Source: Candidatus Limnocylindrales bacterium
GTDB taxonomy: Bacteria > Chloroflexota > Limnocylindria > Limnocylindrales > CSP1-4
Length of the DNA stretch: 64,000 nucleotides
NCBI GenBank assembly: GCA_050008515.1
Contig: JBEKMM010000004.1
Location: 83,343 to 147,342 of the forward strand
Reading direction: 5' to 3'
Below, in pieces: positions 432-63,989 of this stretch (the stretch's first letter is position 1; every line of letters starts with the position of its first letter). Position numbers and translations under genes: made by a program. The notes beneath the pieces were generated by a model that searched no databases, was not told the DNA's origin, and saw only the letters and a program-made list of their open reading frames with translations.

Positions 432-1247
432 TCAGCGCGTGGGCTGCGTGGGCAGCTGCCGGCGCACCTGGACCACTCGCTTCATCTCGAGATCGGCGAC
501 GACCACACCCGGGCCGTCCGGTGCCTGCGCGATGACGACGCCCCACGGATCGACGACCATGCTGCGGCCGTGGGTCGGCACGCCGCCGCCGATGCCGCAC
601 TGCGCCGGCGCGATGACGAAGGCGCCGTTCTCGATCGCCCGGGCGCGCAGCAGCACCTCCCAGTGGTCCCGCCCCGTGGCCTCGGTGAAGTTGGCGGGCA
701 CCGCCAGCACCACCGCCCCCGCGGCCGTCATCTCGCGGTAGAGCTCCGGAAACCTAACGTCGAAGCAGATGCTGAGGCCGATGCGCACGTCCGCTTCCTG
801 GGCCACGCCCTGCATCACCGCCACGACGCTCCGGTCGCCGGGCGTCGTCCGGGCGGACTCGCGGTCGGAGGGGCCGTCGTCGATCGACACGTCGAAGAGG
901 TGCCGCTTGCGATACGTCACGCAGACCTGGCCGGCCGGGTCGAGCAGGACGGAGGTGTTGTACGGGCGCTGGGGGTCGGCCGAGCGTTCGGCCAGGCTGC
1001 CCAGCAAGATCCAAGTGTCGAGCGCGCGAGCCAGCTCGGCGAAGGGCTCGGTCATCGGGCCTGGCATCTCCGTGGCTGAATCTCGCAGGCCTGCGGCGGG
1101 GCCGCGGTACAGGAACATCTCCGGCAGCGCGACCAGCTGCGGGCGCAGCTCGCCGGCCTGCTTGACGAGGGCGACCGCCCGCTCCACGTTCGCGGCCACG
1201 TCTTGGTCGGCGGCGAGCTGGATCAGCGCCACTCGTAGACGGCTCAT
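432..1247 (-). CDS. carbon-nitrogen hydrolase (nitrilase/amidohydrolase superfamily)
   Basis: C-terminal 271 aa of track ORF 432..2093 begins MSRLRVALIQLAADQD. Typical CN-hydrolase fold features (ALPEMF, catalytic Cys region SICFDVRFPE). ATG at 1245-1247; the upstream extension overlaps the HD gene on the other strand. Confidence 0.85.
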   Translation of the reverse strand: MSRLRVALIQLAADQDVAANVERAVALVKQAGELRPQLVALPEMFLYRGPAAGLRDSATEMPGPMTEPFAELARALDTWILLGSLAERSADPQRPYNTSVLLDPAGQVCVTYRKRHLFDVSIDDGPSDRESARTTPGDRSVVAVMQGVAQEADVRIGLSICFDVRFPELYREMTAAGAVVLAVPANFTEATGRDHWEVLLRARAIENGAFVIAPAQCGIGGGVPTHGRSMVVDPWGVVIAQAPDGPGVVVADLEMKRVVQVRRQLPTQPTR

Positions 1248-1334
1248 GGATGCTCCCCTCCCCGATCGCGGTGATGTTCGCGGCCCGTGCCGGCTGGCTT
1301 GCGTCGATGGTACGCTCCCCCCGAGGAGGTTTCC

Positions 1335-1901
1335 ATGACCAGCCCGAGCCGCGCGGATGCGTGGCAGCTCCTGACGGAATGGTCGCCGAGCGAGGCGCTT
1401 CGCAAGCACGGCCTTGCGGTCGAGGCGACGGTGGCGTGGTACGGCGCGAACCGCTTCGCGATCACCGGCTCGGAGCTCGAGACCTGGCGCATCGCCGGCC
1501 TGCTCCACGACTTCGACTACGAGCGCTTCCCCGACACTCACCCTCTGCGCGGCGCCGAAGAGCTGCGGCGTCTCGGCTACCCCGAGGTCGTGGTGGAGTC
1601 CGTCCTGGGCCACGGCGACCACACCGGCGTCCCCCGGACGAGCCTTCTGGCGAAGACCGTCTACGCCTGCGACGAGCTTTCCGGCTTCGTGATTGCCGTG
1701 AGTTACGTTCGGCCGAACCGGAGCCTCGATGAAGTGGACCCGCACGCCGTCGTCAAGAAGATGAAGGACAAAGGCTTCGCCCGCCAGGTCCCCCGCGACC
1801 AGCTGGTGCGCGGCGCCGAGGAGCTCGGGGTCCCGTTCGAGGAACACGTCGCGAACGTGGTGGCGGGGCTCAAGACCATCCGAGAGACGCTCGGCCTCTA
1901 G
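1335..1901 (+). CDS. HD-domain phosphohydrolase family protein
   Basis: GGAGG RBS followed by ATG at 1335. Motifs LLHDFDYERFPDTHPLRG and GHGDHTG are typical of HD-superfamily proteins. Confidence 0.8.
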   Translation: MTSPSRADAWQLLTEWSPSEALRKHGLAVEATVAWYGANRFAITGSELETWRIAGLLHDFDYERFPDTHPLRGAEELRRLGYPEVVVESVLGHGDHTGVPRTSLLAKTVYACDELSGFVIAVSYVRPNRSLDEVDPHAVVKKMKDKGFARQVPRDQLVRGAEELGVPFEEHVANVVAGLKTIRETLGL

Positions 1902-2079
1902 GGCGCGCCGGACATACCCAGCAGATCGCCGGTCCGACGAGCGCAGGCCAAGGCGGCGCAGAGCACCGGAGCGAGCGCACCCAGAGGTGCGTAAGCGAGG
2001 AGCGCAGGCGCCAACGCCGGAATGCGCCGGCTGACCGAGCGAGATGAGCGGCGGCCGCCCCGACGGTCCCCCGGGCGCC
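1902..2079 (+). repeat. intergenic structured repeat element, copy A (family of three in this window)
   Basis: About 85% identical to 36012..36189 and 61857..62010. Terminal inverted repeat ggcgcgccgg/ccgggcgcc and a conserved internal hairpin cgcacc-N4-ggtgcg. Confidence 0.7.
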
Positions 2080-2216
2080 TCCAACCGGCACATCGAACCA
2101 GCCTCCCTGCGGTGTTGCCAGGACGCACCCCGGCAGTGGAGGCTTCGGCCCCGGACCGGGGGTCTTGAGGCGGAGCGGAGGTCGCGGACCGGCGGCGGGG
2201 CCGGCGGAGCTTGCGG

Positions 2217-4039: not shown

Positions 4040-4167
4040 GCGGCGATCCTACGAGCCGCCGCCTGCGTTGGCTCACGCCGAACGTCCCGGCGGGCCGATC
4101 AATCCGTACGGAACCAAGACACGCCGTACGGAACCCCGACACGCTGGTCGGGGAAGCGTGCTGCCCG

Positions 4168-5091
4168 TCAGCCCTTGATGGCTCCGCTGAGACCGCCGCC
4201 CCGCAGGAACATACGCTGGAAGATGAGGAACAGCGCGATCGGGAACAATGTCGCGATCGCCAGGGACGCGAGGAAGAGGTCGAGCTGAATGCCCCTCTCG
4301 AGGGTCGGGAGTCGCACCGAGAGCGGCTGGTTGGCCGGAGTCGGCAACACCAGCATCGGCCACAGGTAGTCCTTCCACGTCGCAATCACGGCGAAGACAG
4401 ACACGACGCCCAGGATCGGGCGCGACAGCGGCAGGACGATCGACCAGAAGAGGCGGAACGGGCCGGCGCCATCGACCCGTGCCGCCTCGAAGATCTCGCG
4501 GGGCAGGTTGTCGAAGAACCGCTTGATGATCACGACGTTGAACGCGCTGGCCCCCGCCGGCAGCCACACCGCCCAAAACGTGTCGAGCAGCTTGATGTTC
4601 ACCAGCGGCATGTCCAGGACGGTCAGGTAGAGAGGAACCAGCAAGACGATCGAGGGGACGAACAGAGTGGCCAGCACCAATCCATACAGGAGACGCGTGC
4701 CCCTGGGTCGCAATACCGAAAGAGCATAACCGGCAGTCGTCGCGACAGTGATCTGGCACATCCAAGATCCCACGGCGATCCAGACCGTGTTCATGAAGTA
4801 GCGTTCGATGTGGACCTTCGTGAAAGCCTGGGTCAGAAGGCTCAGGTCGAAGCCGTTGGGCCACAGCGCCATCGGCTGTCGCAACGTGTCCTGGGTCGGG
4901 GTGATGGCCGCCTTGGCCAGCCACAGGATCGGACCCAATCCAACGATGATCAGCAGGATCAGAGTCAGCACGTGGACCGTCTGGACAGTCCAGCGGATCC
5001 TCCGGCGATGCCAATCCGCCAGCGAAACGATGCCGCGCTGCTCGGCCGGAGGAGCCTTTCGACCCACCCGGGAAGGAAGGGACAGCTTCAT
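4168..5091 (-). CDS. carbohydrate ABC transporter permease (MalG-like)
   Basis: Starts MKLSLPS at 5089-5091. Six TM segments and the EAA-type loop (FDNLPREIFEAARVDGAG). 4-nt overlap with the upstream permease. Confidence 0.9.
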   Translation of the reverse strand: MKLSLPSRVGRKAPPAEQRGIVSLADWHRRRIRWTVQTVHVLTLILLIIVGLGPILWLAKAAITPTQDTLRQPMALWPNGFDLSLLTQAFTKVHIERYFMNTVWIAVGSWMCQITVATTAGYALSVLRPRGTRLLYGLVLATLFVPSIVLLVPLYLTVLDMPLVNIKLLDTFWAVWLPAGASAFNVVIIKRFFDNLPREIFEAARVDGAGPFRLFWSIVLPLSRPILGVVSVFAVIATWKDYLWPMLVLPTPANQPLSVRLPTLERGIQLDLFLASLAIATLFPIALFLIFQRMFLRGGGLSGAIKG

Positions 5092-7683: not shown

Positions 7684-9439
7684 TCATTCTCCCTCCACTG
7701 TCGGGAACCGGAGGAATCGGTCCTCGGTTAGGGGCCGGTCGGGGCGCAACCAAGCGGTGGCGTCCGACGGCAGTAGTCCACCCGTCAGGTCGGCGCTGGC
7801 AAGCAGCACGGATGCGCCGGCGGGCAATTCGATGGGGGCGCGAGAGAGGTTGGCGATGCAGACGAAACTCTCGCCCCGCCCAAAGGCGAGCACTTCGTCG
7901 GCCGAGAGTAGCCATCGCAGATCGCCGCCGGCCAGGTCCGGGTCGCTCCGCCGGATGCGCAGCATCCTTCGATACAGGCTGAGCATCGAGGCCGAATCTC
8001 TCTGCTCCGCCTCGACGGTCAATTCCGCCCAGTGGCTCGGTTGGGGCAACCAGGGCTCGGCTGTGGCGCCGGCCGGGCTGAAGCCGAAGGGCTGATTGGA
8101 TCCGGCCCACGGCAGCGGGACGCGGCATCCGTCCCGGCCTGGATCTGCGCCACCGGAACGGTGATACATCGGGTCCTGCCGCTGTTCGGCGGGCAGGTCC
8201 TGGACCTCGTCGAGGCCCAGCTCTTCGCCCTGGTAGATGTACAAGGAGCCCGGCAGGGCGGCACACAGCAACGCGGCCGCTCTCGCTCGCTTCCGACCGA
8301 GTTCCAGATCCGTCGGAATGCCAGCCCGCTTCGTGGCGAAGGCAAACGCGGTGTCCTCCTGGCCGTATCTGGTCACGGGCCGGGTGACGTCGTGATTGGA
8401 CAGCACCCACGTGGGCGGCGCGCCGACCGGCGCGTGCGCGGCCAGCGTGCTGTCGATCGACGCCTTCAAACTGGCCGCATCCCAGGCCCGAGCCAGGAAG
8501 TCGAAGTTGAAGGCCGTGTGAAGCTCATCGGCGCGCAGGTACTTGGTGAAGCGGTCGATGTCCGGAAGCCAGATCTCCCCGACCAGAATCCGGGTGTCGG
8601 GATAGGAATCCGCCACGGACCGCCAGCGGCGGTATATCTCGTGCAGCTCGTCCCGATCCGTGTTGGGATGCTCACCGGGCCCGGGCTCCGCCGGCACCTC
8701 AGGCAGCGCCGGGTCCTTCACCAACAGGGCCGCCGAATCGACACGAACACCAGCCACTCCACGGTCGAACCAGAAGCGGAGCACAGCCTCGTGCTCGGCC
8801 CGAACGTCGGGGTGGCTCCAGTTCAGGTCGGGCTGCTGAGCCGAGAAGAGATGGAGGTACCACTCGCCTGGAGTGCCGTCCGGGTTCTGCGTCCGTGTCC
8901 AAGTCGGGCCCGAGAAGTTGGACACCCACCCATTGGGCATCTCGTTGCCATCTTCGCCCCGGCCAGGGTGGAACCAGAACCTCGCCCGTTCCGGCGAGCC
9001 CGGGCCCGAGGCAAGGGCCGCCTGGAACCACGGGTGCTGATCCGAAACGTGATTCGGGACGATGTCGACGATGGTCCGGATGCCCAGGCTTCGGGCTTCC
9101 GATATGAGCCGCTCCGCCTCGTCGAGCGACCCGAAGGACGGGTCGATGGCTCGGTAGTCCGCGACGTCGTATCCGCCGTCGGCAAGCGGCGATACGTACC
9201 AGGGAGTGAACCAGATGGCATCGACTCCCAGATCCACCAGGTACTGCAGCCGCGTCCGCACGCCAGTGAGGTCGCCGATGCCGTCGCCATTGCCGTCCGC
9301 GAAGCTCCGGACGTAGACCTGGTAGATGACGGCGCGCCGCCACCACTGGTCGTCCGCGTCCGATGCCCTGCGAGGCCACCCCTCCGGGTCGGCCGTGGTC
9401 CGCGGTGAAGCTGCGCCTGCGAGGAGCTCGTCGGTCACT
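7684..9439 (-). CDS. alpha-glucosidase / oligo-1,6-glucosidase family (GH13)
   Basis: GH13 conserved regions: WWRRAVIYQVYVRSF, DGIGDL, GIRTIVDIVPNHVS, GVRVDSAALL, EIWLPD, FNFDFL. Start uncertain: GTG near 9439 proposed, and the ORF upstream of it looks non-coding. Confidence 0.85.
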
Positions 9440-13572: not shown

Positions 13573-14217
13573 TGCCAGTGCACCTCGGACGCCTTCGAGG
13601 TGCCGGGGATGGCCGTGACGGCTCCGCCGGTCGAACCGACAACGAAGATCCCGCCCGTGCTCTTGATGAAGGCGATCTTGCTGCCGTCAGGCGACCAGGT
13701 GGGCTTGGATCCCGTGCCGGCATAGATGATCATCCCGACTCCGGTGGTGGCGCTCTGCATGGTCAGATGGCTGCTGAAGATGGCAAGCGTGGCGCTGCTG
13801 GGGGACCATGCGAAATCGGTTGCCGCGCCGAAGTCCCGAATGGCGCCGCCGCTGAGGTTGCGGACGTAGAGATGGCCCGACTTCAGGTAGGCGATCTTCG
13901 AGCCGTTGGGGGAGATTTCAGCCCGCGTGGCCGTGATGCCCAAAGATGTGTAGACGCCGTCCGTGAGGCTCACCTTCAGCCACACACCGGAGGGGTTCAC
14001 AGCAAGGAGCGCCGATCCATCGGGCAGCCAGCGTCGGGGTCGCGGTCGGGGCTAGCGTCGGGGTCGCGGTCGGGGCTAGGGTCGGGGTCGCGGCGGAGGT
14101 GCCGCTCGGCAGCGCGGAAGATGTTTCGAGCCAGGGCGTTGTCCTCGCGGATCCGCAGGCCCCGACAACCAGGGAGAGAGCGGCGACAACCGCGGCCGCA
14201 CGGACGTTGTGACCCAT
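13566..14217 (-). pseudogene. PD40/WD40-like beta-propeller lipoprotein interrupted by a frameshift in a Pro-Thr repeat
   Basis: Track ORF 13918..14217 encodes signal peptide plus lipobox (LVVGAC) and a PTLAPTATPTLAPTATPTLA linker. It then runs out of frame into ORF 13566..14000, which encodes PD40 repeats (YLKSGHLYVRNLSGG, KPTWSPDGSKIAF). The 83-nt overlap lies inside a 12/24-bp tandem repeat. Confidence 0.5.
14020..14095. repeat. tandem 12/24-bp coding repeat (gtcggggtcgcg / gtcggggctagc units)
   Basis: About 5.5 alternating 12-mers encoding (PTATPTLA)n on the minus strand. Likely site of the frameshift above. Confidence 0.7.
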
Positions 14218-14370: not shown

Positions 14371-14445
14371 GTGGAGCCGACACTCGGATTCGAACCGAGG
14401 ACCTGTTGTTTACGAAACAACTGCTCTACCGCTGAGCTATGTCGG
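14371..14445 (-). tRNA. tRNA-Thr (anticodon CGU)
   Basis: Reverse complement GCCGACATAGCTCAGCGGTAGAGCAGTTGTTTCGTAAACAACAGGTCCTCGGTTCGAATCCGAGTGTCGGCTCCA folds as a canonical cloverleaf: 7-bp acceptor, D arm GCTC/GAGC, anticodon stem GTTGT/ACAAC with loop TTCGTAA, T arm CTCGG/CCGAG with TTCGAAT, encoded CCA. Confidence 0.9.
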
Positions 14446-14573
14446 CGCGAGCGGGATGGTATCACGACCGTTCGACGGGATCGAACCTGGCCGCGCCCGA
14501 GAGAGTCCACAGAGCAGGCAATCACGTTTGATTGGGGGAAGCCTTCCACTGCCCCGGTGGGTAGGATGTACGC

Positions 14574-35440: not shown

Positions 35441-36007
35441 ATGGAGCAGCGCGTCGACGACGCGGAGAGCGTGGGCCGGCCGCAGGCCTCGAGCATCGCG
35501 GGTGTCCAGGGCGTCGCGGGTGGTGCGGGCGTCGCGGGTGCCGCGGGCGACCCCGAGGCTTTGCTCGCCGCCGCCCTCGATCCGGTCGAGTTGCGAGCCT
35601 GGAAGGCGTTTCTACTCCGTCACGCTCGCGTCGCTCGCCGCCTCGAGGCGGACCTGATGGCTCGCAGCGACCTTCCGCTGGCCGAGTACGACGTGCTGGT
35701 CCAGCTCGCCCTCGCCGACGGCCGGCGTCTGCGCATGAACGAGCTGGCGGATCGAGTGCTGCTCAGTCGGGCCGGCATCACGCGGCTCGTCGACCGGCTC
35801 ACCGCCGACGCCCTGGTCAGCCGCGTCAAGTGCGCCTCGGACGCGCGCGGCTACTTCGCCGTGCTCACGGCCGGAGGCCTGGCCCGACTCGAAGCGGCGA
35901 CGCCCGGTCACCTGGCCGCGGTGCGACGCTACTTCCTCGAGTCGTTCACTGAGTCCGAGCTCGAGACGCTGGCCGAGCTGCTGGAGCGCAGTCGGCCCCT
36001 CGACTGA
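35441..36007 (+). CDS. MarR-family transcriptional regulator
   Basis: AAGGAG RBS plus ATG 35441. Winged-helix region LAEYDVLVQLALADGRRLRMNELADRVLLSRAGITRLVDRL. Confidence 0.8.
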   Translation: MEQRVDDAESVGRPQASSIAGVQGVAGGAGVAGAAGDPEALLAAALDPVELRAWKAFLLRHARVARRLEADLMARSDLPLAEYDVLVQLALADGRRLRMNELADRVLLSRAGITRLVDRLTADALVSRVKCASDARGYFAVLTAGGLARLEAATPGHLAAVRRYFLESFTESELETLAELLERSRPLD

Positions 36008-36011
36008 CACC

Positions 36012-36189
36012 GAGCCCGGACCCGCCGGTCACGCGCCGCAGATCGTCGGTCCGACGAGCGCAGGCCAAGGCGACGACGAACATCGCAGCGAGCGCACCCG
36101 TAGGTGCGTGAGCGAGAAGCACAGGAGCCAACGCAGGAATGAGCCGGCTGACCGAGCGAATGCAAGCGGCGATCGGCGGATCCGGGCTC
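36012..36189 (+). repeat. intergenic structured repeat element, copy B
   Basis: Homologous to 1902..2079 and 61857..62010. Terminal stem gagcccggacccgccgg/ccggcggatccgggctc. Internal hairpin cgcacc-cgta-ggtgcg. Confidence 0.7.
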
Positions 36190-36215
36190 TAGCGTCGAGG
36201 CGGTATCGTTCGGCC

Positions 36216-37556
36216 ATGCCAACGCGCAGCGAGATCGTCGAGGTCTCCGGCCGACAGGTCGCGATCACCAACCCGGACAAGGTCTACTTCGCCGGACCGG
36301 GCTACACCAAGCGCGATCTCGTCGCCTACTACATGGCCGTGGCCGCGGGAGCCCTGAGGGGAGCAGGTGGGCGGCCGATGGCGCTGAAGCGCTACGTCAA
36401 CGGCGCCGACGGCGACTTCTTCTTCCAGAAGCGCGCCCCCGATTCGCGCCCCGATTGGATCCAAACCGTCGAGATCTCGTTTCCGTCCGGTCGCACGGCC
36501 GACGAGATCGTGATCGACGACGCGGCCGGACTGGCCTGGATCGCCAACCTTGGCTGCCTCGATCTCAACCCGCACGCGGTCCGTGCCGACGACCTAGACC
36601 ACCCCGACGAGTTGCGAGTCGACCTCGACCCGGTCCCGGGCGTGCCCTGGAACGACATCCGGCGAGTCGCGCTCGTCACGCGCGAGGTGCTCGCCGACGT
36701 GGGCCTGGTGGGCTGGCCCAAGACCTCGGGTTCGCGCGGCATCCACGTCAACGTCCGGATCGAGCGGTGCTGGTCCTTCGACGAGGTCCGTCGCGCGGCG
36801 CTGGCGCTGGCCCGCGAGGTGGAGCGGCGCGCACCCACGATAGCCACGAGCAAGTGGTGGAAGGAAGAACGCCACGGCGTCTTCATCGACTACAACCAGA
36901 ACGCCAAGGACCGAACGGTCGCGTCTGCGTACTCGGTTCGGCCGGTGCCCGATGCCCGCGTCTCGGCGCCTGTGACCTGGGACGAGCTGCCCGAATGCGA
37001 GCTGGGCGACTTCACGATCGCGACGGTGCCGGCCCGGTTCGCCGCAGTCGGCGATCCAGCCGCCGGGATCGACGCGGCGGTCGGGTCGCTGGACGGGCTG
37101 CTCGAGTTGTCGGCGCGGCAGGCGAAGGCGGGGCAGGGCGACGCGCCGTGGCCACCCAACTACGCCAAGGCCCCCGGCGAGCCGCCGAGGGTCGCGCCGT
37201 CGCGTGCTCGCAAGCCGGCCAGCGGTGCGGCCGGCGGCGGGCCCAGCGGCGCGCCCAGCGGCCCGAGCCCCCGGGCGCCCTCGCCGACCGGTCGTCGCGC
37301 GTCCACCAAGCCGCTGATCGAGATCGCCCGAGCGGCCACCAGGGAGGCGGCTCTCGCCGCGTTCGAACGCTGGAAGTCGCGCCACGCCGGCGTTGTCGCC
37401 CACCTCGAGCCGTCCGACCTGCTGGTCGATTCGATGCGCGGGCGCTTCACGCTCTGGTATCGCATCCGCGTCAACCTCGAGCACGTGCCCGAGCCGGAGC
37501 GCCCGCCGCAGGAACCCCTCGACGCCGACTACGATCCGTGGAGTCAGTATCGCTGA
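36216..37556 (+). CDS. LigD-type polymerase (primase-polymerase, PolDom) domain protein with C-terminal extension
   Basis: N-terminal 300 aa match the NHEJ polymerase domain (KVYFAGPGYTKRDLVAYY, FFFQKRAPDSRPDWI, DLDP, SRGIHVNVRI). Low-complexity Pro/Ala tail follows. Confidence 0.8.
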   Translation: MPTRSEIVEVSGRQVAITNPDKVYFAGPGYTKRDLVAYYMAVAAGALRGAGGRPMALKRYVNGADGDFFFQKRAPDSRPDWIQTVEISFPSGRTADEIVIDDAAGLAWIANLGCLDLNPHAVRADDLDHPDELRVDLDPVPGVPWNDIRRVALVTREVLADVGLVGWPKTSGSRGIHVNVRIERCWSFDEVRRAALALAREVERRAPTIATSKWWKEERHGVFIDYNQNAKDRTVASAYSVRPVPDARVSAPVTWDELPECELGDFTIATVPARFAAVGDPAAGIDAAVGSLDGLLELSARQAKAGQGDAPWPPNYAKAPGEPPRVAPSRARKPASGAAGGGPSGAPSGPSPRAPSPTGRRASTKPLIEIARAATREAALAAFERWKSRHAGVVAHLEPSDLLVDSMRGRFTLWYRIRVNLEHVPEPERPPQEPLDADYDPWSQYR

Positions 37557-39118: not shown

Positions 39119-40432
39119 ATGGCGAAGGCTGGAACCGCGACTGGCGAGCGCAACTTCGAGGTGGTCGGGATCGCGCGCGTCGAAGGCGAGGGCACACTCA
39201 AGCTGCGCATCACCGACGGCGAGGTCAAGGAGGCTCGCCTCTCGATCTTCGAGGCGCCCCGCTACTTCGAGAAGCTCGTCGTGGGGCGCATGCCCAACGA
39301 GGTCGTCGACATCGTGGCGCGGATCTGCGGCATCTGCCCGGTCGCCTACCAGATGGGCGCGTCGATGGCCTTCGAGCACCTCTTCGAGGTCGAGATCGAC
39401 CCCCAGGTTCGGGCCCTGCGCAAGCTCTTCTACTGGGGCGAATGGATCGAGAGCCACGCCCTCCACGTCTACATGCTCCATGCCCCGGACTTCCTGGGCT
39501 ACGAGAGCGCGATCGCCATGGCCCGCGATCACAAGCACATCGTCGAGCAAGCCCTCCGGCTCAAGCGGACCGGCAACGAGATCATGAAGCTGATCGGAGG
39601 CCGGGCGATCCACCCCGTCGCGATGCGCGTCGGCGGCCTGTCGAGGACCCCCACGAAAGCAGAGATAGCGGCGCTGCACGATCCGCTCAAGGAAGCGCTC
39701 GACCTGTCGAAGGCGACGCTCAAGCTCGTCGGCGCGTTCAAAGCGCCGGCATTCGAGCGCGACCCGCTCTACGTTGCCATCAAGCACCCGATCGAGTACG
39801 GCCTCAACGAGGGCCGGATCGTCTCAACCGACGGGATCGACGTGCCGATCTGGGGCTGGCGCGAGGCTTTCCACGAGGAGCACCACGAAGGCACGAACGC
39901 CCTCCACGCCCGAACCAACGACGGCCGAACGTACATGCTCGGGCCGGCCGCGCGCGTGACCCTCAACGCCGACCAGCTCCATCCGATCGCCCGCGAGGCG
40001 CTCGGCGCCAGCGGCCTGGCGAAGCAGATCGCCCGCAACCCGTACTGGAGCATCGCCGCCCGCGCCGTGGAGCTGATCCACGCTTCGGCCTCGGCGCTCG
40101 ACATCGTCAAGACCTACGAGGAACCGGCCCGGCCGTTCGAGGCCTGGACGCCACGGGGCGGCGAGACGGGCTGGGGCTCGGAGGCGCCGCGCGGCATCTG
40201 CTGGCACCACTACGACGTTGACGACAACGGGCGCATCCTGGCGGCCCAGATCATCGCCCCCACGGGACAGAACCAGGGCATGATCGAGCAGGACCTGACC
40301 GGGTTCGCACCGCAGGTCCTGTCCCTATCTCACGCCGAGGCCACGGTGCGCCTGGAGCAGCTGATTCGAGCTTACGACCCCTGCATCAGCTGCGCGACGC
40401 ACTTCCTCACGCTCGAGATCGAGCGCGACTGA
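39119..40432 (+). CDS. [NiFe]-hydrogenase large-subunit homolog (short, about 437 aa), no adjacent small subunit
   Basis: N-terminal Ni-binding motif RICGICP and C-terminal DPCISCATH followed by a 9-aa tail; overall NiFe large-subunit architecture. AGGTGG RBS before ATG 39119. No FeS small-subunit gene on either side. Confidence 0.7.
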   Translation: MAKAGTATGERNFEVVGIARVEGEGTLKLRITDGEVKEARLSIFEAPRYFEKLVVGRMPNEVVDIVARICGICPVAYQMGASMAFEHLFEVEIDPQVRALRKLFYWGEWIESHALHVYMLHAPDFLGYESAIAMARDHKHIVEQALRLKRTGNEIMKLIGGRAIHPVAMRVGGLSRTPTKAEIAALHDPLKEALDLSKATLKLVGAFKAPAFERDPLYVAIKHPIEYGLNEGRIVSTDGIDVPIWGWREAFHEEHHEGTNALHARTNDGRTYMLGPAARVTLNADQLHPIAREALGASGLAKQIARNPYWSIAARAVELIHASASALDIVKTYEEPARPFEAWTPRGGETGWGSEAPRGICWHHYDVDDNGRILAAQIIAPTGQNQGMIEQDLTGFAPQVLSLSHAEATVRLEQLIRAYDPCISCATHFLTLEIERD

Positions 40433-40542
40433 TCGTCGGGCGGCCGGCACATCCCTTCGTTGGCGCCTGCGCTCCTCGGTGCTCTACGCCGCCTCGGCCT
40501 GCGCTCGGCGGCCCGGCGATCTCGCGTACTCTGGGGAACGAA

Positions 40543-57373: not shown

Positions 57374-58579
57374 ATGCCGATGCGAGAACGGCGAGCGGCC
57401 CACGTTCGACCACTGCCCCCCTCGGGCGAGCGATTTCGGACGCACCAGATCCGGGCCTCTGCGCCGCCACCGGAGCTGATCCGCCGGTACCGGCCGATCC
57501 GGACGAACAAGGGGGTCCCGGCCCCACTCGGCATCGGCGCAATTGCCGTGTTCCTCGTCCTCGGCGTCGCGATGCTGATCGTGGGCGGCAACATCCTGGT
57601 GAACGTCGTGGGCCAGCTCGCGCACGCGTTCGACAGCGCGATCTCGCAGGTCTCGTCCATGCCGCCGGCCACCATGGCGCCCTCGGGCGTGGCCCTCGAC
57701 ACTCCGGTCCTCGACGCGCCCGACAACGGCGGCTACACGAACCACGCGACGGTGTCGCTGTCGGGCAGCGTCCCGGGCGCGGCCATCGGCAAGAGCGGCT
57801 ACAAGGTCCGGGTCTACGCCATCGCCTCGAACGGGACCCGCAGCCAGGTCGCCGAGATCGAGGTTGGCGCAACGACTCACTTCACCACGGCTGCCCTCAC
57901 GCTCGTCGAGGGCTCGAATACCTTCGCGGCGGCGCTGGTTACTCCGAGCACCGAGGGCCAACCGTCGCCGGAGGTCGTCTACATCCTGGACACCGCGCCG
58001 CCGGTGATGTCGGTCACCTCGCCGGTGGACGGCAGCTCCCAGTCGGGCAGCTCGGTCGTCGTTTCGGGCAAGAGCGACCCGGACTCGACGGTCACGGTCC
58101 GCAACAGGCAGGCGCCCGGCGGCGGGCTCAGCAGCAAGGTCGTCGGCCAGGACGGTCGGTTCGCGATCACGGTGGGCCTGGTCGCGGGCTCGAACTCGAT
58201 CCAGGTGACCGCCACAGATCGGGCCGGCAACGTGACCACGGACCAGCTGACGGTCAAGCGGTCGTACGGCAAGCTGGCGGCGCACCTTGCCGTTGCGCCG
58301 GCCACGTTCAAGGCCAGCGGTCCCACGACGCTCAAGCTGACGACCCACGCCACCTCCGCGAACGGCGGCCCGCTGGCCGGGGCGAAGGTCGTCTTCACGG
58401 TCACCGTGCAGGGGCTCGGGCCGATCGTCTCGCCCGAGCTGACGACGGATCAGACGGGGACCGCGACCTGGAAGGTGACCGTCTCGGGGGCGACGCCGGG
58501 AATCGGCGCGGCCACCGCGCTCGTCACGACGAGCGACGGCGACCAGGTGTCCGCCACCACGCGCCTGACGACAACCTGA
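57374..58579 (+). CDS. membrane-anchored surface protein with Ig-like (bacterial Ig/invasin-like) repeats
   Basis: Single N-terminal TM (GAIAVFLVLGVAMLIVGG) followed by beta-rich Thr/Ser/Val repeats resembling Big/Ig-like domains. Confidence 0.55.
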   Translation: MPMRERRAAHVRPLPPSGERFRTHQIRASAPPPELIRRYRPIRTNKGVPAPLGIGAIAVFLVLGVAMLIVGGNILVNVVGQLAHAFDSAISQVSSMPPATMAPSGVALDTPVLDAPDNGGYTNHATVSLSGSVPGAAIGKSGYKVRVYAIASNGTRSQVAEIEVGATTHFTTAALTLVEGSNTFAAALVTPSTEGQPSPEVVYILDTAPPVMSVTSPVDGSSQSGSSVVVSGKSDPDSTVTVRNRQAPGGGLSSKVVGQDGRFAITVGLVAGSNSIQVTATDRAGNVTTDQLTVKRSYGKLAAHLAVAPATFKASGPTTLKLTTHATSANGGPLAGAKVVFTVTVQGLGPIVSPELTTDQTGTATWKVTVSGATPGIGAATALVTTSDGDQVSATTRLTTT

Positions 58580-58585
58580 TCCGGG

Positions 58586-60451
58586 TTACGCGGTCGGGCT
58601 CGGGGTGGGGGTTGGTGTCGGGGTCGGGGTTGGTGTGGGCGTGGGCGTCGGGGTGGGTGTGGGCGTCGGGGTGGGTGTGGGCGTCGGGGTGGGCGTGGGC
58701 GTCGGCTCGGGCCCCAACGAGACGACGTAGTCGACGGTCGAGTCCTTCAGGACGGTCAGACCCCTCTTGGGGTTGCTGCTGATGATCTGACCCTCGGGAA
58801 CTGTGGGGTCGTAGGCCTCAGTGCGATCGCCCGGTTGCAGGCCCGCCGACGTGAGGGCTTTGGTGGCCTCGCTTTCGATCAGATTCCGGATATCCGGGAC
58901 GACGACCTGCGCCGTTCCGGTGACGACCGTGACGTAGATCGTGTCGCCCTTGTTCATGGCGTTTCCGGCCGGCGGGACCTGGGACAGGATCGTCTTGTCG
59001 TCGTGGGTGCCGTCGTTGGGCTTGGTGTCGGAAATTGAGATCTGCAGTCCATAGGATTGGGCGGTCTGCTGGGCATCGCTGAAGGTGAGGCCCACCAGAC
59101 TCGGGGAGTACACCGTCGAGCCGGACGGCGAGTTCCGGCTGATCATCAGGTAGATCGTCAGACCGAGGAGCGTCACCAGGAAGAGAGCCAGGAAGCCCGC
59201 CACCCAGGCCCAGGTGCTGACCGGCTCCGTGTCTTCATCGGGCAGCTCGGACTCCGTCTCGACCGGATTGATCCGGCGGGTGACCCGATGGGCGATGCCG
59301 TCGGGCGAGTAGCCGCTCTGGTCGCCGGACCCGGCGGCGTAGTCATCCTGCACCGGGGGCCGGGTCGCGTAGGCGTCGGTAGAGTAGGTGACGCGGGCGG
59401 TCGGGTTGGGGCGTCGGACCAGCGGCGCCGTAGGCGGGACCGGCGGAACAACGGGCGGGACCACGGGCGGCACCGGCGGTGGTGCCACGACGCGCACGAC
59501 GGGAGCGGGGGGCGTCACCGGCCTGGCGTATCGCTCCGGCTCGGGCTCGGGCTCGGGCGCCAGATGAGCCCCCGGCTCGGTCTCCGCCTCCGCCTCGTCC
59601 ACGACGGGAGCCGCCGCAAGCTGGGCATCGAGCCGCGCGATCAGGGCCTCCAGCGCGTCCGCAAGCGCCCCGGCCGAGTCGTATCGCCTCGGGGGCTCGG
59701 CCGCCATCGCCTTGCGGACGATCGCCTCGAACTCGTCGGGAACGCCGCCCTGGAAGTCGGACGGGGATGGGTTGGGGTCCGCCAGACGAGCCTTCGCCAC
59801 CGCATCTGCCGTCTTGCCGTCCCACGGGCCACGGCCGGTCAGCAGCTCGAAGAGCAGAACGCCCAGGGCGTATGTGTCCGACGCGTCGGTGGCACGCCGA
59901 CCTCTCGCCTGCTCGGGGCTCTGGTACCACGCCTCCTGGACGGAGAGCGCCGGTCGCAGCAACGACTCGGCCAGGGCGCGGACGAGACCGAGATCCGCCA
60001 CCTTGATCTGGCCGTCACGGGTGACGATGACGCTGCCGGACGTCAGGCCGCCGTGGACGATGCCGCGCTCGTGAGCCGCAGCCAGCGCCGTCGCCACCAC
60101 GCTCGTGACGCTGGCGGCGCGGCGCGGCGGAACGGCGCCGTTGCGCGCCAGGAGCGAGCCCAGCTCCTGGCCGTCGATGAACTCGGTGGCAATGTAGACG
60201 TCGGAGGCATCCGCCCCGAAGTCGTGGATGGCGACGATGTTGGGGTGGTCCAGACCGGCCGCGGCTCGCATCGCAAGGCGGAAGTCGGCTACGAAGTCCG
60301 CGTCGGTGCCGAGTTCGGGGCTCAGCACCCTAACGGCGACGACGCCGCCACTCTGGGAATCGATGGCCCGGAAGACAGTCGAGATTGCATCTTCGCCACG
60401 CAGCTCCATGAGCCGGTAGCGCCCTGCGATCACCTGTCCGATCTCGGCCAC
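58586..60451 (-). CDS. PASTA-domain Ser/Thr protein kinase homolog lacking catalytic residues (pseudokinase) with (PT)n tail
   Basis: Kinase fold retained (SPEQARG, activation segment), but VAVK is VAVR, HRD is HGG and DFG is DLG, and the glycine loop is degenerate. TM helix, extracellular PASTA repeats, then C-terminal PTPTPT... x15. Confidence 0.8.
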   Translation of the reverse strand: MAEIGQVIAGRYRLMELRGEDAISTVFRAIDSQSGGVVAVRVLSPELGTDADFVADFRLAMRAAAGLDHPNIVAIHDFGADASDVYIATEFIDGQELGSLLARNGAVPPRRAASVTSVVATALAAAHERGIVHGGLTSGSVIVTRDGQIKVADLGLVRALAESLLRPALSVQEAWYQSPEQARGRRATDASDTYALGVLLFELLTGRGPWDGKTADAVAKARLADPNPSPSDFQGGVPDEFEAIVRKAMAAEPPRRYDSAGALADALEALIARLDAQLAAAPVVDEAEAETEPGAHLAPEPEPEPERYARPVTPPAPVVRVVAPPPVPPVVPPVVPPVPPTAPLVRRPNPTARVTYSTDAYATRPPVQDDYAAGSGDQSGYSPDGIAHRVTRRINPVETESELPDEDTEPVSTWAWVAGFLALFLVTLLGLTIYLMISRNSPSGSTVYSPSLVGLTFSDAQQTAQSYGLQISISDTKPNDGTHDDKTILSQVPPAGNAMNKGDTIYVTVVTGTAQVVVPDIRNLIESEATKALTSAGLQPGDRTEAYDPTVPEGQIISSNPKRGLTVLKDSTVDYVVSLGPEPTPTPTPTPTPTPTPTPTPTPTPTPTPTPTPTPTPSPTA

Positions 60452-61421: not shown

Positions 61422-61799
61422 TCAGCTTCGATCGGCCGCCAGGGCGGCCGGGTCCACGAACTCGTGGTCGTCGCGATGAAGGCCGTCGCACAACCCCAAC
61501 CGGCGCGGCTCGACGGGCAGCCAGACCGGTCTCATGATCTCGCGAACCTGGGAGCGACGGCAGAAGAGCAGCCCGCGCCCCGACATCCAGGTCAGCACGT
61601 GGCTCGGCTCGCTGTGGAACTCGAACGGGCCGGGGTTCAGGCTGGCGGTCTCCGCCCAGGATACGGGCGCCTCGGGCGCCACGACATCCAGGATGCTGAT
61701 GCGCCAGGGCATTCCTTCGACGATCTTGCCGCAGCCGGCACACCGGGCGGCGACGTTTTCGGTGACGATCGTGGGGATGCGGACGCCGTAGAGTTCCAT
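61422..61799 (-). CDS. hypothetical protein (125 aa)
   Basis: MELYGVRIPTIV... start at 61797-61799. The longer track ORF 61422..62015 runs into the repeat element. Confidence 0.4.
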   Translation of the reverse strand: MELYGVRIPTIVTENVAARCAGCGKIVEGMPWRISILDVVAPEAPVSWAETASLNPGPFEFHSEPSHVLTWMSGRGLLFCRRSQVREIMRPVWLPVEPRRLGLCDGLHRDDHEFVDPAALAADRS

Positions 61800-61856
61800 C
61801 TGTTCCGGATCGTAGCAGGTCGGTTGAAGATGGTCCGGCACGTGGAGCGAGACGAA

Positions 61857-62010
61857 CCCGGATCCACCGGTCACGCGCCGCAGATCGCCGGGCCGACGAG
61901 CGCAGGCCAAGGCGGCGACGAGCATCGGAGCGAGCGCACCTGGAGGTGCGTGAGCGAGAAGCGCAGGAGCCAACGGAGCGAGATGCAAGCGGCGATCCGG
62001 TGGATCCGGG
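61857..62010 (+). repeat. intergenic structured repeat element, copy C
   Basis: Homologous to copies A and B. Terminal stem cccggatccaccgg/ccggtggatccggg (perfect). Internal hairpin cgcacc-tgga-ggtgcg. Confidence 0.7.
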
Positions 62011-62258
62011 TTCAATGGAAGAGGACGAGCTTTCGCCTGCCGAGGCGGCCCGGGAGAAGAGGCGCGACCGCGATGCGGAGGCGCGGGCGCGGGCCGGCAT
62101 GCGCACCGGTCTGGCGAAGCAGTTCAAGCAGGTGCTCGACGTGCAGCGACAGCGCGCCGAAGAGGTGGAGCTGCGCCAGGAGGAGTCCGCGGCGGAGCCC
62201 GGGGCCCACGGCGCGCCCAAGGGGAGACGGCGCAAGCCCTAGGAGCCGGCCCCGTGGC

Positions 62259-63989
62259 TCAATTCATCGTGAAGTAGCCCGAGACGTCGAATACCACGTC
62301 GGCACGAGCCACGGTCATGGCCACGAACGTGACCCACAGGCCGCCGTCGGTACCGATCGGAACCGTGACCGCGTTTGCTCGGGTGTCGCCTTTGGGGAAG
62401 TTGAGGGTCGAGGTGTCGGGCACTCCACCCGGATCTTCGGGCGTCAGGGCGAAGAACCCGGCTGCGCCCTCGCCCACCGCCGTCAGGTTGCCCGTTACGC
62501 CGACCGCGCCCGCCGGAACGTTGAGCGCCGGGTCGGTCGATTGGCCCGTCACCGCGAACTCCTTCTGCACCAGGCAGAGCAGTGACGCCGACAGTCCCAG
62601 ACGCGTGCCCTTGCGCGAGTCGACCAGCCGGTTCGGAGTCAGGGCTACGTAGGTTGCGCCGGTCGTGTCCGGGACGAAGTAGCCGGTGACGTCGAAGAGC
62701 ACGTCCGCGTGCGCGCCCGCTGAGCCCGCGAAGTAGACCCACAGGACGCCGCCGGTGCCGAGGGGAACGGTCACGCCGTTGGCTCTGACGTCGCCCTTGG
62801 GGAAGTTGATGGTCGATGTCGGCGGCTGGCCGACCGGCCTGACCGGGGTCAGAGCGAAGAGACCGCCGGAGCTCTCGTTCACGGCGGTGAGGTTGCCTAC
62901 GACCGCGACCGCTTCCGCCGGGACGTTGAGCGCCACGTCAGCCGATTGACCGGTCACGTGGAAGCTCGCCGAGGTGCCGGCGGTCAGCGACTTCGACATG
63001 CCGAGCCAAGTGGGGCGACGCGAGTCCAGCACCCGATTCGGCGTGAGCGGCTTGTACGTGGCACCGCTCGTGTTGCCGACGAAGTAGCCCGTGACGTCGA
63101 AGACGACATCCGCCTTCCTGCCGGAGACGCTGACATATGTGATCCACAGCTTTCCGCCCGCCCTCAGCGGAACGGTCACGGCGTTGGCCCTGACGTCGCC
63201 CTTGGGGAAGTTGAGCGTCGAAGTATCGGGCACTCCGCCGGGGTCGTCCGGGGTCAGCGCGAAGAACCCGGCGGCATCCTCGTTCACGGCGGTCAGGTTG
63301 CCCGTGACTGCCACGGCACCCGTCGGTATGTTCTTCGCCGGATCGGCGGAGCGGCCCGTGGCCTGGAACCAGACCGGGACCTTGTTGCTCAACGACGCCT
63401 TGAGCCCCAGGGGCACGCGGGAGTCCACCAGCCGGTTCGGAGTGACGGTCACGTACGTGGCCCCGGCGAGCGGCATCGCGGCGGGCGAGGCAGCGGAGGG
63501 GTCGCTCGTCCCCGCAACGTTGGTGGCCGTCACCGTGAAGGTGTACCAGGACCGGTTCGTCAGCCCCGTGACGGTGCAGGAGCGCGCCCCCGTGGTGTGG
63601 CACGGCACGCCGCCGGGCGAGGGGATCACGTCGTACCGAGTCACGGGGCTGCCGCCGTCGAATGGCGGAGCGCTCCACGAGACCAGGGCGTAGCCGTTGG
63701 AGGCGAGGGCTTTGACGTTCACCGGGGCGTCCGGTTTGGTCCGCGGCGTGGCCGCAGGTGACGGGTCGGACGGCAGCCCAGGACCCAGAGAATTGGTCGC
63801 GGTGACTTTGAACGTGTATGCCACGCCGTTGGTCAGGCCGGTCACGGTGCAGCCGATGGTGACGCCGTTGCTGCACGTCTTGCCGCCCGGCGACGCCGTG
63901 ACGGTGTAGCTGGTGATCGGGCTCGAGCCGTGATCGGCTGGGGCGGTCCAGGTCACCGCGACGGTGGTGTTGTCAGGCGTGCCCAACAC
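62259..63989 (-). CDS. surface protein with two FN3-like domains and three tandem about 140-aa repeats of an unrecognised domain; N-terminus outside window
   Basis: FN3-like segments (SPITSYTVTASPGG...YTFKVTATN). Then three copies of LTPNRLxDSR...FxVTGQSxDxALNVPAxAVAVxGNLTAVNE...NFPKGDxRANxVTVPL...ADVxFDVTGYF. The ORF is open to the window end. Confidence 0.6.
   Translation of the reverse strand: MLGTPDNTTVAVTWTAPADHGSSPITSYTVTASPGGKTCSNGVTIGCTVTGLTNGVAYTFKVTATNSLGPGLPSDPSPAATPRTKPDAPVNVKALASNGYALVSWSAPPFDGGSPVTRYDVIPSPGGVPCHTTGARSCTVTGLTNRSWYTFTVTATNVAGTSDPSAASPAAMPLAGATYVTVTPNRLVDSRVPLGLKASLSNKVPVWFQATGRSADPAKNIPTGAVAVTGNLTAVNEDAAGFFALTPDDPGGVPDTSTLNFPKGDVRANAVTVPLRAGGKLWITYVSVSGRKADVVFDVTGYFVGNTSGATYKPLTPNRVLDSRRPTWLGMSKSLTAGTSASFHVTGQSADVALNVPAEAVAVVGNLTAVNESSGGLFALTPVRPVGQPPTSTINFPKGDVRANGVTVPLGTGGVLWVYFAGSAGAHADVLFDVTGYFVPDTTGATYVALTPNRLVDSRKGTRLGLSASLLCLVQKEFAVTGQSTDPALNVPAGAVGVTGNLTAVGEGAAGFFALTPEDPGGVPDTSTLNFPKGDTRANAVTVPIGTDGGLWVTFVAMTVARADVVFDVSGYFTMN

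Follow-up and report, generated by a model that had tools for sequence, protein, structure and literature searches.

The 64-kb stretch of Candidatus Limnocylindrales DNA analysed here (64,000 nucleotides, referred to as the window throughout) carries four copies of a palindromic intergenic element that probably represents a previously undescribed family of foldback repeats, of the same kind as MITEs (transposable elements of the miniature inverted-repeat type) and the ERIC and Correia elements, and that behaves like a mobile element rather than a dedicated RNA gene. The family has many copies and is non-coding, its hairpin is conserved, and its members have been gained and lost and occur in both orientations. 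Three of the window copies (A, B and C, all on the plus strand) had been recognised in an initial annotation made from the sequence of the window alone, which offered a structured RNA or a MITE as candidates; they are indeed present and exceed chance expectation, as two core motifs found six (four exact) and three matches in the window and none of 100 shuffles gave as many of either. The annotation placed all copies in the same orientation, which is true only for A to C, because a fourth, partial copy (D) lies inverted on the minus strand. A covariance model (R1; 127 positions, 27 pairs) that was run over the window with filters off scored 135.5, 133.3 and 96.1 bits for A, B and C (E 1e-31 to 7e-22) and 67.5 bits for D (E 9e-15), the next unrelated match in the window reaching 15 bits. 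All four copies are intergenic and non-coding. The copies and their parts, including terminal inverted repeats (TIRs), are located as follows.

1902..2079, plus strand: copy A, full-length; fold -96.3 kcal/mol, z -3.5
1921..2047, plus strand: conserved core of copy A, 127 nt; 135.5 bits, E 1e-31
1975-1992, plus strand: apical hairpin of copy A (GCGCACC 1975-1981, loop CAGA 1982-1985, GGTGCGT 1986-1992)
36012..36189, plus strand: copy B, full-length; 133.3 bits, z -5.5
36015-36031 and 36170-36186: left TIR CCCGGACCCGCCGGTCA and right TIR CGATCGGCGGATCCGGG of copy B
36038-36164 and, within it, 36092-36109: core and apical hairpin of copy B
61854..62013, plus strand: copy C, including a GAA/TTC extension of its TIRs (61857-62010 from TIR to TIR); 96.1 bits, z -6.9
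61857-61873 and 61994-62010: perfect TIRs of copy C, CCCGGATCCACCGGTCA and GATCCGGTGGATCCGGG
61880-62007 and, within it, 61934-61951: core and apical hairpin of copy C
40427..40524, minus strand: copy D, partial and inverted; 67.5 bits, -57.8 kcal/mol, still a hairpin

Full copies align end to end and fold as a single long irregular hairpin, that is, as an imperfect palindrome, with minimum free energies of -96, -93 and -92 kcal/mol for A, B and C and z-scores of -3.5, -5.5 and -6.9 against dinucleotide shuffles; with DNA parameters the element also folds as a single strand (z -5.0). Its outermost part consists of TIRs of 17-30 nt with the consensus CCCGGATCCACCGGTCAAGCGCCGC / GCGGCGATC(C)GGTGGATCCGGG, which are near-identical in 11 full copies (CCCGGATCCACCGGTCA / TGA(C/T)CGGTGGATCCGGG) and lie within the 4-30 bp range of prokaryotic MITEs. 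The closing stem of the initial annotation does pair; it is in fact the outer part of these TIRs, the whole element being one hairpin. Inside the TIRs lies a basal stem (GATCGCCGG.. / ..CCGAGCGAGAT) with an apparent tandem G.A, followed inward by short helices that are split by sequence-conserved internal loops (GCAGG-CC-AA-GGCGGCG ... GCC-AACGC-AGG-AATGC). The tip is formed by an apical hairpin, GCGCACC-N4-GGTGCGT, with GA/GA on its flanks; its variable loops (CAGA, CGTA and TGGA) are as first described, and its stem has 7 rather than 6 bp, including one G.U. The terminal stems differ among the window copies and each is self-complementary, as had been claimed. The ends of copy A have diverged and yet pair with one bulge (GGCGCGCCGG, 1902-1911, with CCGGGCGCC, 2071-2079), copy B pairs with one C.A mismatch and one missing base (gacccgccgg/cggcggatc), and copy C pairs perfectly (gatccaccgg/ccggtggatc). 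Complementary extensions are found outside the TIRs in copy B (GAG...CTC) and copy C (GAA...TTC). Copy D, first seen as the inverted-repeat pairs I1-I4, has neither outer TIRs nor the apical hairpin.

In model-based alignments of 27 distinct sequences, standard pairs fill 96.9-97.2% of the cells and 8 of the 27 pairs show changes on both sides, counts that are biased towards the model and drawn from related sequences; all five measures lie above every shuffle (0/500), and pairing falls to 17-43% when the 3' partners are slid as a control. The pairing and compensatory statistics thus demonstrate that the hairpin is preserved, and the covariation first noted in three copies is retained now that more are aligned. 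Pair 46/94, for example, is C-G in 21 sequences and U-A in 6; ACU...AGU variants have U-A instead of C-G as their seventh apical pair, and the outermost pair of the TIRs, mostly G-C, is A-T in copy C and C-G in L114 (retrieved loci carry L numbers). The compensatory change originally seen between B and C is an A-T to G-C exchange in the TIR, G-C in copies A and B (alignment pair 15/176, AU in 10 and GC in 2 sequences). An imperfect stem became perfect through changes in the left arm of L136 and in the right arm of L120, as would be expected either from selection on the fold or if quasi-palindromes are corrected by intrastrand templating.

The search for further copies that the initial annotation had proposed yielded, in addition to copy D, about 25 distinct copies elsewhere after removal of duplicates, exclusively in metagenome-assembled genomes of Chloroflexota/Limnocylindrales and in soil and peat metagenomes. 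A 20-mer scan covering one genome per species returned mostly chance matches, the true copies being those in L053, L086, L100 and L114, all of them metagenome-assembled genomes of Chloroflexota/Limnocylindrales. A stricter 38-nt pattern from the left core retrieved 23 metagenome loci (L117-L139), all of which are true copies and among which that stretch is therefore conserved by construction; copies free of this bias were found by synteny (L155, L156, L158, L159/L160 and the second L100/L138 copy). The window is 99.85% identical to contig JAFMOA010000890.1 of GCA_017886315.1, and GalU homologues carry the label Candidatus Limnocylindrales. An enrichment of the 20-mer in Solirubrobacterales was traced to a conserved protein-coding gene that contains the 20-mer and is unrelated to the element; in these loci (L097, L078, L064, L055, L034, L026, L012, L011 and others) the flanks align with codon-like third-position variation.

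Two forms of the element can be distinguished, full copies with TIRs and shorter copies in which the core of about 127 nt is combined with unrelated basal stems. In the latter, self-complementary ends of 7-13 bp take the place of the TIRs, as in the following loci.

L136: basal stem GTCTCGCTCGG/CCGAGCGAGAC
L120: basal stem GATCGCCGTC/GACGGCGATC
L126: basal stem GTTGGCG/CGCCAAC
L128: basal stem CTCGCCGCTG/CAGCGAGCGAG
L119: basal stem GCCGGTCCGCCA/TGGCGGGCTGGC

Individual loci show further peculiarities. A small palindrome (GCGAGCCAGGCAAGCCTGGCTTG) is nested in the core of the L118 copy (4154-4299, the same as L133 11175-11320), with a second copy of it just 3' (AAAGCCAGGCTTCGCCTGGCTCGCG), and may belong to another short palindromic repeat family of that genome. 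In L114 a second TIR-like end (CCCGGATGCTCCGGTCA, 7861-7877) overlaps the final two bases of the first element, which ends at 7862; the sequence that follows is unlike that of the first element, the contig stops 21 nt on, and the arrangement may reflect either insertion in tandem or the presence of a related family with a common TIR. A decayed left end without a recognisable core in L131 (11540-11830, minus strand; GCCCGAATCCACCCGTCCAGCGCCAGGATCGCCGCTCCG...) is probably an old truncated copy.

Gain and loss of the element are evident where orthologous sites could be compared. Copy C lies upstream of galU between divergent small genes (for a 125-aa protein on the minus strand and a 75-aa protein from 62016), and the same divergent spacer lacks the element in three relatives with GalU proteins 97, 93 and 91% identical, whose syntenic loci, 100 kb in all, contain no copy at all; because the spacer is too diverged, a target duplication cannot be read at the empty site. 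Copy C is itself a deletion variant in which 20 nt of the 3' arm (after 61975) are gone in comparison with the same site in L140, from a 99.85%-identical genome. The rpsJ-rplC spacer measures 4 nt and is empty in L157 and L161/L162, and carries a sense copy in L128/L100/L130/L138, L155/L156 and L158; in L159/L160 it carries an antisense copy, whose basal stem (TGTCGCGAGC.../...GTTGTGCGACA) is different again. Identity of the ribosomal-protein genes gives the tree ((L128,L155),L157),L158, which together with this occupancy implies either that a copy was lost precisely or that copies were gained repeatedly. Between rplF and rplR, L155 and L158 have a spacer of 28 nt, L100/L138 a diverged copy (42.9 bits), and L157 a remnant with an internal deletion. 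The TIR-less forms are thus not mere truncations, having their own basal stems and a recent insertion at rplF-rplR in the L100 lineage. Decay is documented by the arm deletion of copy C, by loss of the apical hairpin in copy D and L086, and by the truncated remnants in L131 and L157. In other assemblies of the same population, contigs break off within the element (L141 1-168, L142 1-35, L144 11993-12023 and L145 4042-4072). The L141 copy differs from the window at 7 positions despite 99.9%-identical flanks, and these differences are probably due to repeat-induced assembly breaks or chimeras.

The copies have no uniform orientation relative to the genes beside them (about 10 are sense and 8 antisense), and they often adjoin stop or start codons, often within operons. 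Copy A is flanked by convergent genes, and its first base directly follows the TAG stop codon (1899-1901) of one of them, an HD-domain gene according to Pfam; a stop codon at or a few bases from the start of the element is likewise seen in L121, L122, L123, L139 and L159. Copy B is sense to both neighbours, a MarR-family gene (stop 36005-36007) and a gene for a LigD primase-polymerase (ATG 36216). Copy D is antisense to both of its neighbours and occupies a 111-nt spacer between a gene for a NiFe-hydrogenase large subunit (stop 40430-40432) and one for a membrane protein (40543). At the opposite end of the element, an ORF (open reading frame) downstream of the L132 copy appears to start at an ATG within GAGCGAGATG of the 3' arm (approximately 880-900), and in L155 (590-601) and L158 (8992-9003) the arm GCGAGCGAG stands 4-8 nt ahead of the rplC ATG, replacing the 4-nt coupled junction of the empty sites. 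Judged from these positions, the 3' arm may supply translation signals in L132 and at rpsJ-rplC in L155 and L158.

The flanks of the 11 full copies are strongly T/A-rich in a genome of about 70% G+C, with the consensus CTAA|GCCCGG...CCGGGC|TAAG. Candidate target-site duplications, for which the initial annotation had recommended a check, appear as perfect direct repeats in L129 (TAA, or CTAAG), L125 (TAA) and L123 (TCA, or CTCAG), and in L139 and L086 two of three positions match. We take it as a lead that these flanks would fit a 3-5-bp target duplication centred on TNA, which is typical of some transposases of the IS5 family (IS1031 group) and of the PIF/Harbinger type. Solo TIR-like matches in the loci were considered as ends of an autonomous partner and proved to be chance matches in coding regions, save the left end in L131 and the second start in L114. 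Fixed TIRs of a known insertion sequence or MITE family had been named as an observation that would speak against a structured RNA; TIRs are nearly fixed in one subfamily and match no known family of either kind. Nothing similar to the element was found in plasmids, phages or IMG/VR, and an origin from such replicons was rejected; the TIR 17-mer gave a single match in the plasmid, phage and viral collections (L147), and this lies inside a coding region. We found no description of Limnocylindrales repeats in the literature.

A protein-coding module, whose peptides on the minus strand would be real, was also considered, given that one frame of that strand is open throughout A, B and C and that at copy C the gene caller extended a protein from 125 to 167 aa into the element. 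We attach practically no credence to it. The copies range from 98 to 185 nt, indels of 1, 2 and 20 nt disrupt every frame, the peptide of the open frame has no homologue among 5.8 billion proteins, and that of a second frame belongs to no protein family and gave two weak matches among 1.84 billion representatives. The indels and the empty protein searches rule out a coding repeat, in agreement with the original view of the peptide as a side effect. The 167-aa call upstream of galU (window 61422-62015, minus strand; L140 9491-9994) is an artefact, as orthologues of this protein have 125 aa where the element is absent, and the same kind of artefact is seen in the long ORFs that cover copies A and B on the minus strand (432..2093 and 35929..36222). 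A known RNA family was rejected on the basis of Rfam: at the gathering threshold the only match in the whole window is a tRNA gene (14375-14446, minus strand, 72.7 bits), with nothing on the element, and searches with copy B and the L128 copy at E<=10 returned best E-values of 0.7-9, far below gathering scores.

Prokaryotic MITEs are shorter than 500 bp, possess TIRs of 4-30 bp and direct repeats that fade with age, and reside between genes; their transcripts form very stable hairpins and can affect mRNA decay via RNase III or RNase E, and truncated copies devoid of TIRs resemble REPs (PMC10969869). Our element matches this description in being short and without coding capacity, in its TIRs, and in its multiple dispersed intergenic copies with presence/absence polymorphism, and of the two options originally offered the MITE is the one that fits. 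In the mechanism that we infer, an enzyme encoded elsewhere would spread the copies in trans, the likeliest candidate being a DDE transposase with a TNA (CTNAG) target that is duplicated on insertion. The hairpin would be kept because propagation requires matched ends or a folded single strand, and also because intrastrand templating makes quasi-palindromes self-correct. Wherever a copy is co-transcribed with its neighbours, it would give rise to a very stable RNA hairpin that may incidentally influence the processing or the stability of the mRNA, as is the case for ERIC and Correia elements.

Several observations weigh against this interpretation. Clean target duplications are limited to 3 of the 11 full copies and were found neither at A to C nor at the TIR-less insertions, and neither the scanned genes of the window nor the gene and Pfam annotations of the fetched loci (L140-L164) include a transposase or autonomous element with these ends. 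Conservation is higher in the interior than at the ends, unlike in typical MITEs, and subfamilies have a common core on unrelated basal stems; this hints that the propagating machinery or the host recognises the folded core instead of the termini. The strand on which the model was built folds more stably than the complementary one in 20 of 27 copies, with a mean difference of 4.5 kcal/mol (Wilcoxon p 0.0016; the copies are not independent), and the stems contain 13-21 G.U against 6 A.C when one fixed and one misaligned pair are set aside. Both asymmetries are weak and, as the copies are not independent, give no more than a hint at a strand-specific folded form. In the rpsJ-rplC spacer, furthermore, the cores of L128 and L158 are 92.9% identical, compared with 87.5% for rplC, 88.6% for tuf and 82.7% for rplD-rplB at the DNA level, and the adjacent 30-nt leader has diverged freely and is largely unalignable; purifying selection could be the cause. 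If the 127-nt core were a functional structured RNA, acting in cis on mRNA or as a small RNA and multiplied by or hitch-hiking on mobile ends, selection on the RNA fold would keep the stems, and the conserved internal loops (GCAGGCCAAGG, GCCAACGC and the tandem GA/GA) would be binding sites. This would explain the apparent constraint at rpsJ-rplC and agrees with the strand and G.U biases, with conserved internal loops beside covarying stems, with subfamily basal stems that are wholly different and yet always pair, and with the presence of two copies in sense orientation inside a ribosomal-protein operon, which are therefore certainly transcribed. We nevertheless judge it to be rather unlikely. 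In the closest pair (L128/L155) the core, with 93.7% identity, falls below the 96.6% of rplC DNA; core identity is about 93% whatever the distance between the genomes, and the spacer is an insertion hot spot, so that either a few free positions are saturated and the rest constrained or similar master copies have been inserted independently. Four copies per 64 kb beside unrelated genes are unlike an element of a regulon, the surroundings of copy B contain no promoter-like or terminator-like site, and there is no relative in Rfam. The occurrence of both orientations, including the antisense copy of L159/L160 in the very rpsJ-rplC spacer that elsewhere holds sense copies, the empty sites in close relatives and the tolerated deletions of the apical hairpin or of one arm mean that the covariation does not support selection on RNA structure, contrary to what had been concluded from the three window copies. 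Hairpin-preserving changes are equally expected of foldback DNA, through recognition of single-stranded DNA, matched ends or templated repair of quasi-palindromes.

The conserved core with free, compensated stems would also be explained if a folded single DNA strand were moved by an HUH transposase (RAYT or IS200-IS605 type) that recognises hairpin and bulges and leaves no target duplication, as for REP/REPIN sequences. In favour of this, core and hairpin show greater conservation than the termini, basal stems are lineage-specific with compensatory or perfecting changes (left arm of L136, right arm of L120), TIR-less insertions have no target duplication, and the fold is stable with DNA parameters and somewhat asymmetric between strands. 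Against such an origin, to which we give a low probability, the unit of 127-180 nt is neither a 20-40-nt REP nor a REP doublet, the full-length subfamily bears TIRs of the classical type, and 3 of its 11 copies lie between TNA/CTNAG direct repeats. The two REP superfamilies are defined by a terminal GTAG or CGTC tag (PMC3733652); our element has no conserved terminal tag of either type, GTAG being found in some variable apical loops only. Nor was a Y1/HUH transposase (RAYT) gene detected among the window genes scanned or beside any copy in the fetched loci with gene and Pfam lists. It is conceivable, albeit improbable, that the core is a folded module of RNA or single-stranded DNA under purifying selection and bound by a dedicated protein, and hence either a structured RNA of a new class, borne on mobile ends, or what a new transposition system dependent on hairpins acts upon. 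If so, loop and bulge sequences would be invariant and the basal stem free to change while pairing, the core would be conserved across Limnocylindrales genera and would repeatedly have colonised highly transcribed operon spacers (rpsJ-rplC, rplF-rplR), and one lineage would have acquired classical TIRs. Rho-independent terminators or protective 3' hairpins selected at gene ends would account for the many copies that start at or near a stop codon (A, L121, L122, L123, L139, L159) and for the great stability of the hairpins; they are a very improbable explanation, as no T-run follows A, B or C, the scan around copy B finds no terminator, copies lie between co-transcribed ribosomal-protein genes (rpsJ-rplC, rplF-rplR) and in a divergent promoter region (copy C), and 180 nt of conserved sequence is more than termination needs.

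As a MITE-like repeat family with a working covariance model, the element bears on the genomics of the Limnocylindrales, which are abundant, uncultured Chloroflexota of soil and freshwater. It explains contig breaks in metagenome assemblies of this order, offers a marker for strain-level variation, and flags errors in gene calls because ORFs are extended into it. It also provides a further case of a long hairpin element that enters and leaves operon spacers, including those of ribosomal-protein operons, where the mRNA must be altered. The window contains two other repetitive features. Three 282-nt repeats with 405-nt spacing and 72% identity (62271-63362), within an ORF of 576 aa (62259..63989, minus strand), are tandem protein domains of about 135 aa each, and short-period (6-12 nt) GTCGGG/GTGGGC repeats at two distant places (14033-14110 and 58575-58712) are probably low-complexity coding linkers.

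Comparison with known systems places the family among several types of bacterial repeats. REP, BIME and REPIN sequences are extragenic palindromes whose hairpin is kept by compensatory change and which form lineage-specific variants; they occupy sites inside operons in either orientation, and their movement, by means of RAYT transposases, is presumed to involve single-stranded DNA. The Limnocylindrales element resembles them in hairpin-keeping compensatory change, lineage variants, operon sites and both orientations, whereas its unit is 3-5 times longer and one subfamily has TIRs and probable target duplications. The Correia or NEMIS element, a MITE of Neisseria, measures 100-200 bp, has TIRs of about 26 bp and is transcribed into a long hairpin that is cut by RNase III (PMC10969869). 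Size, TIRs, intergenic location, frequent occurrence at gene ends and within operons, the long transcript hairpin and variants with internal deletions are all comparable. Correia elements duplicate TA and carry IHF and promoter motifs, whereas the flanks of our element point to TNA/CTNAG, and there is no relation in sequence or host. In QMITE2 of Coxiella burnetii a core of 113-145 bp lies between TIRs of 23-29 bp and direct repeats, the hairpin predicted for the transcript is very stable, and many copies have become REP-like through truncation and the loss of TIRs and direct repeats (PMC10969869). The architecture is the same and the truncated copies match window copy D and the TIR-less copies; the sequence, in contrast, is unrelated, and the TIR-less forms in Limnocylindrales have self-complementary basal stems of their own. 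ERIC/IRU elements, finally, are imperfect palindromes of about 127 bp that are intergenic and usually co-transcribed with flanking genes, occur in either orientation, vary strongly in copy number among related taxa, form size variants by internal deletion or insertion, have a consensus conserved across genera, have no known mobilising enzyme and can change mRNA decay. Part of this is described in PMC10969869 and part, reportedly, by Hulton (1991), by Sharples and Lloyd (1990), and by Wilson and Sharp (2006). The Limnocylindrales family is like them in these respects, an effect on mRNA being a possibility in its case, and differs in its host, a member of the Chloroflexota instead of Gammaproteobacteria (Enterobacteriaceae/Vibrionaceae), in basal stems that vary among subfamilies and in the long TIRs that one subfamily has added. 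By analogy, which was drawn from the description of ERIC rather than from its consensus sequence, the repeat would appear to work like ERIC without being a member of that family.

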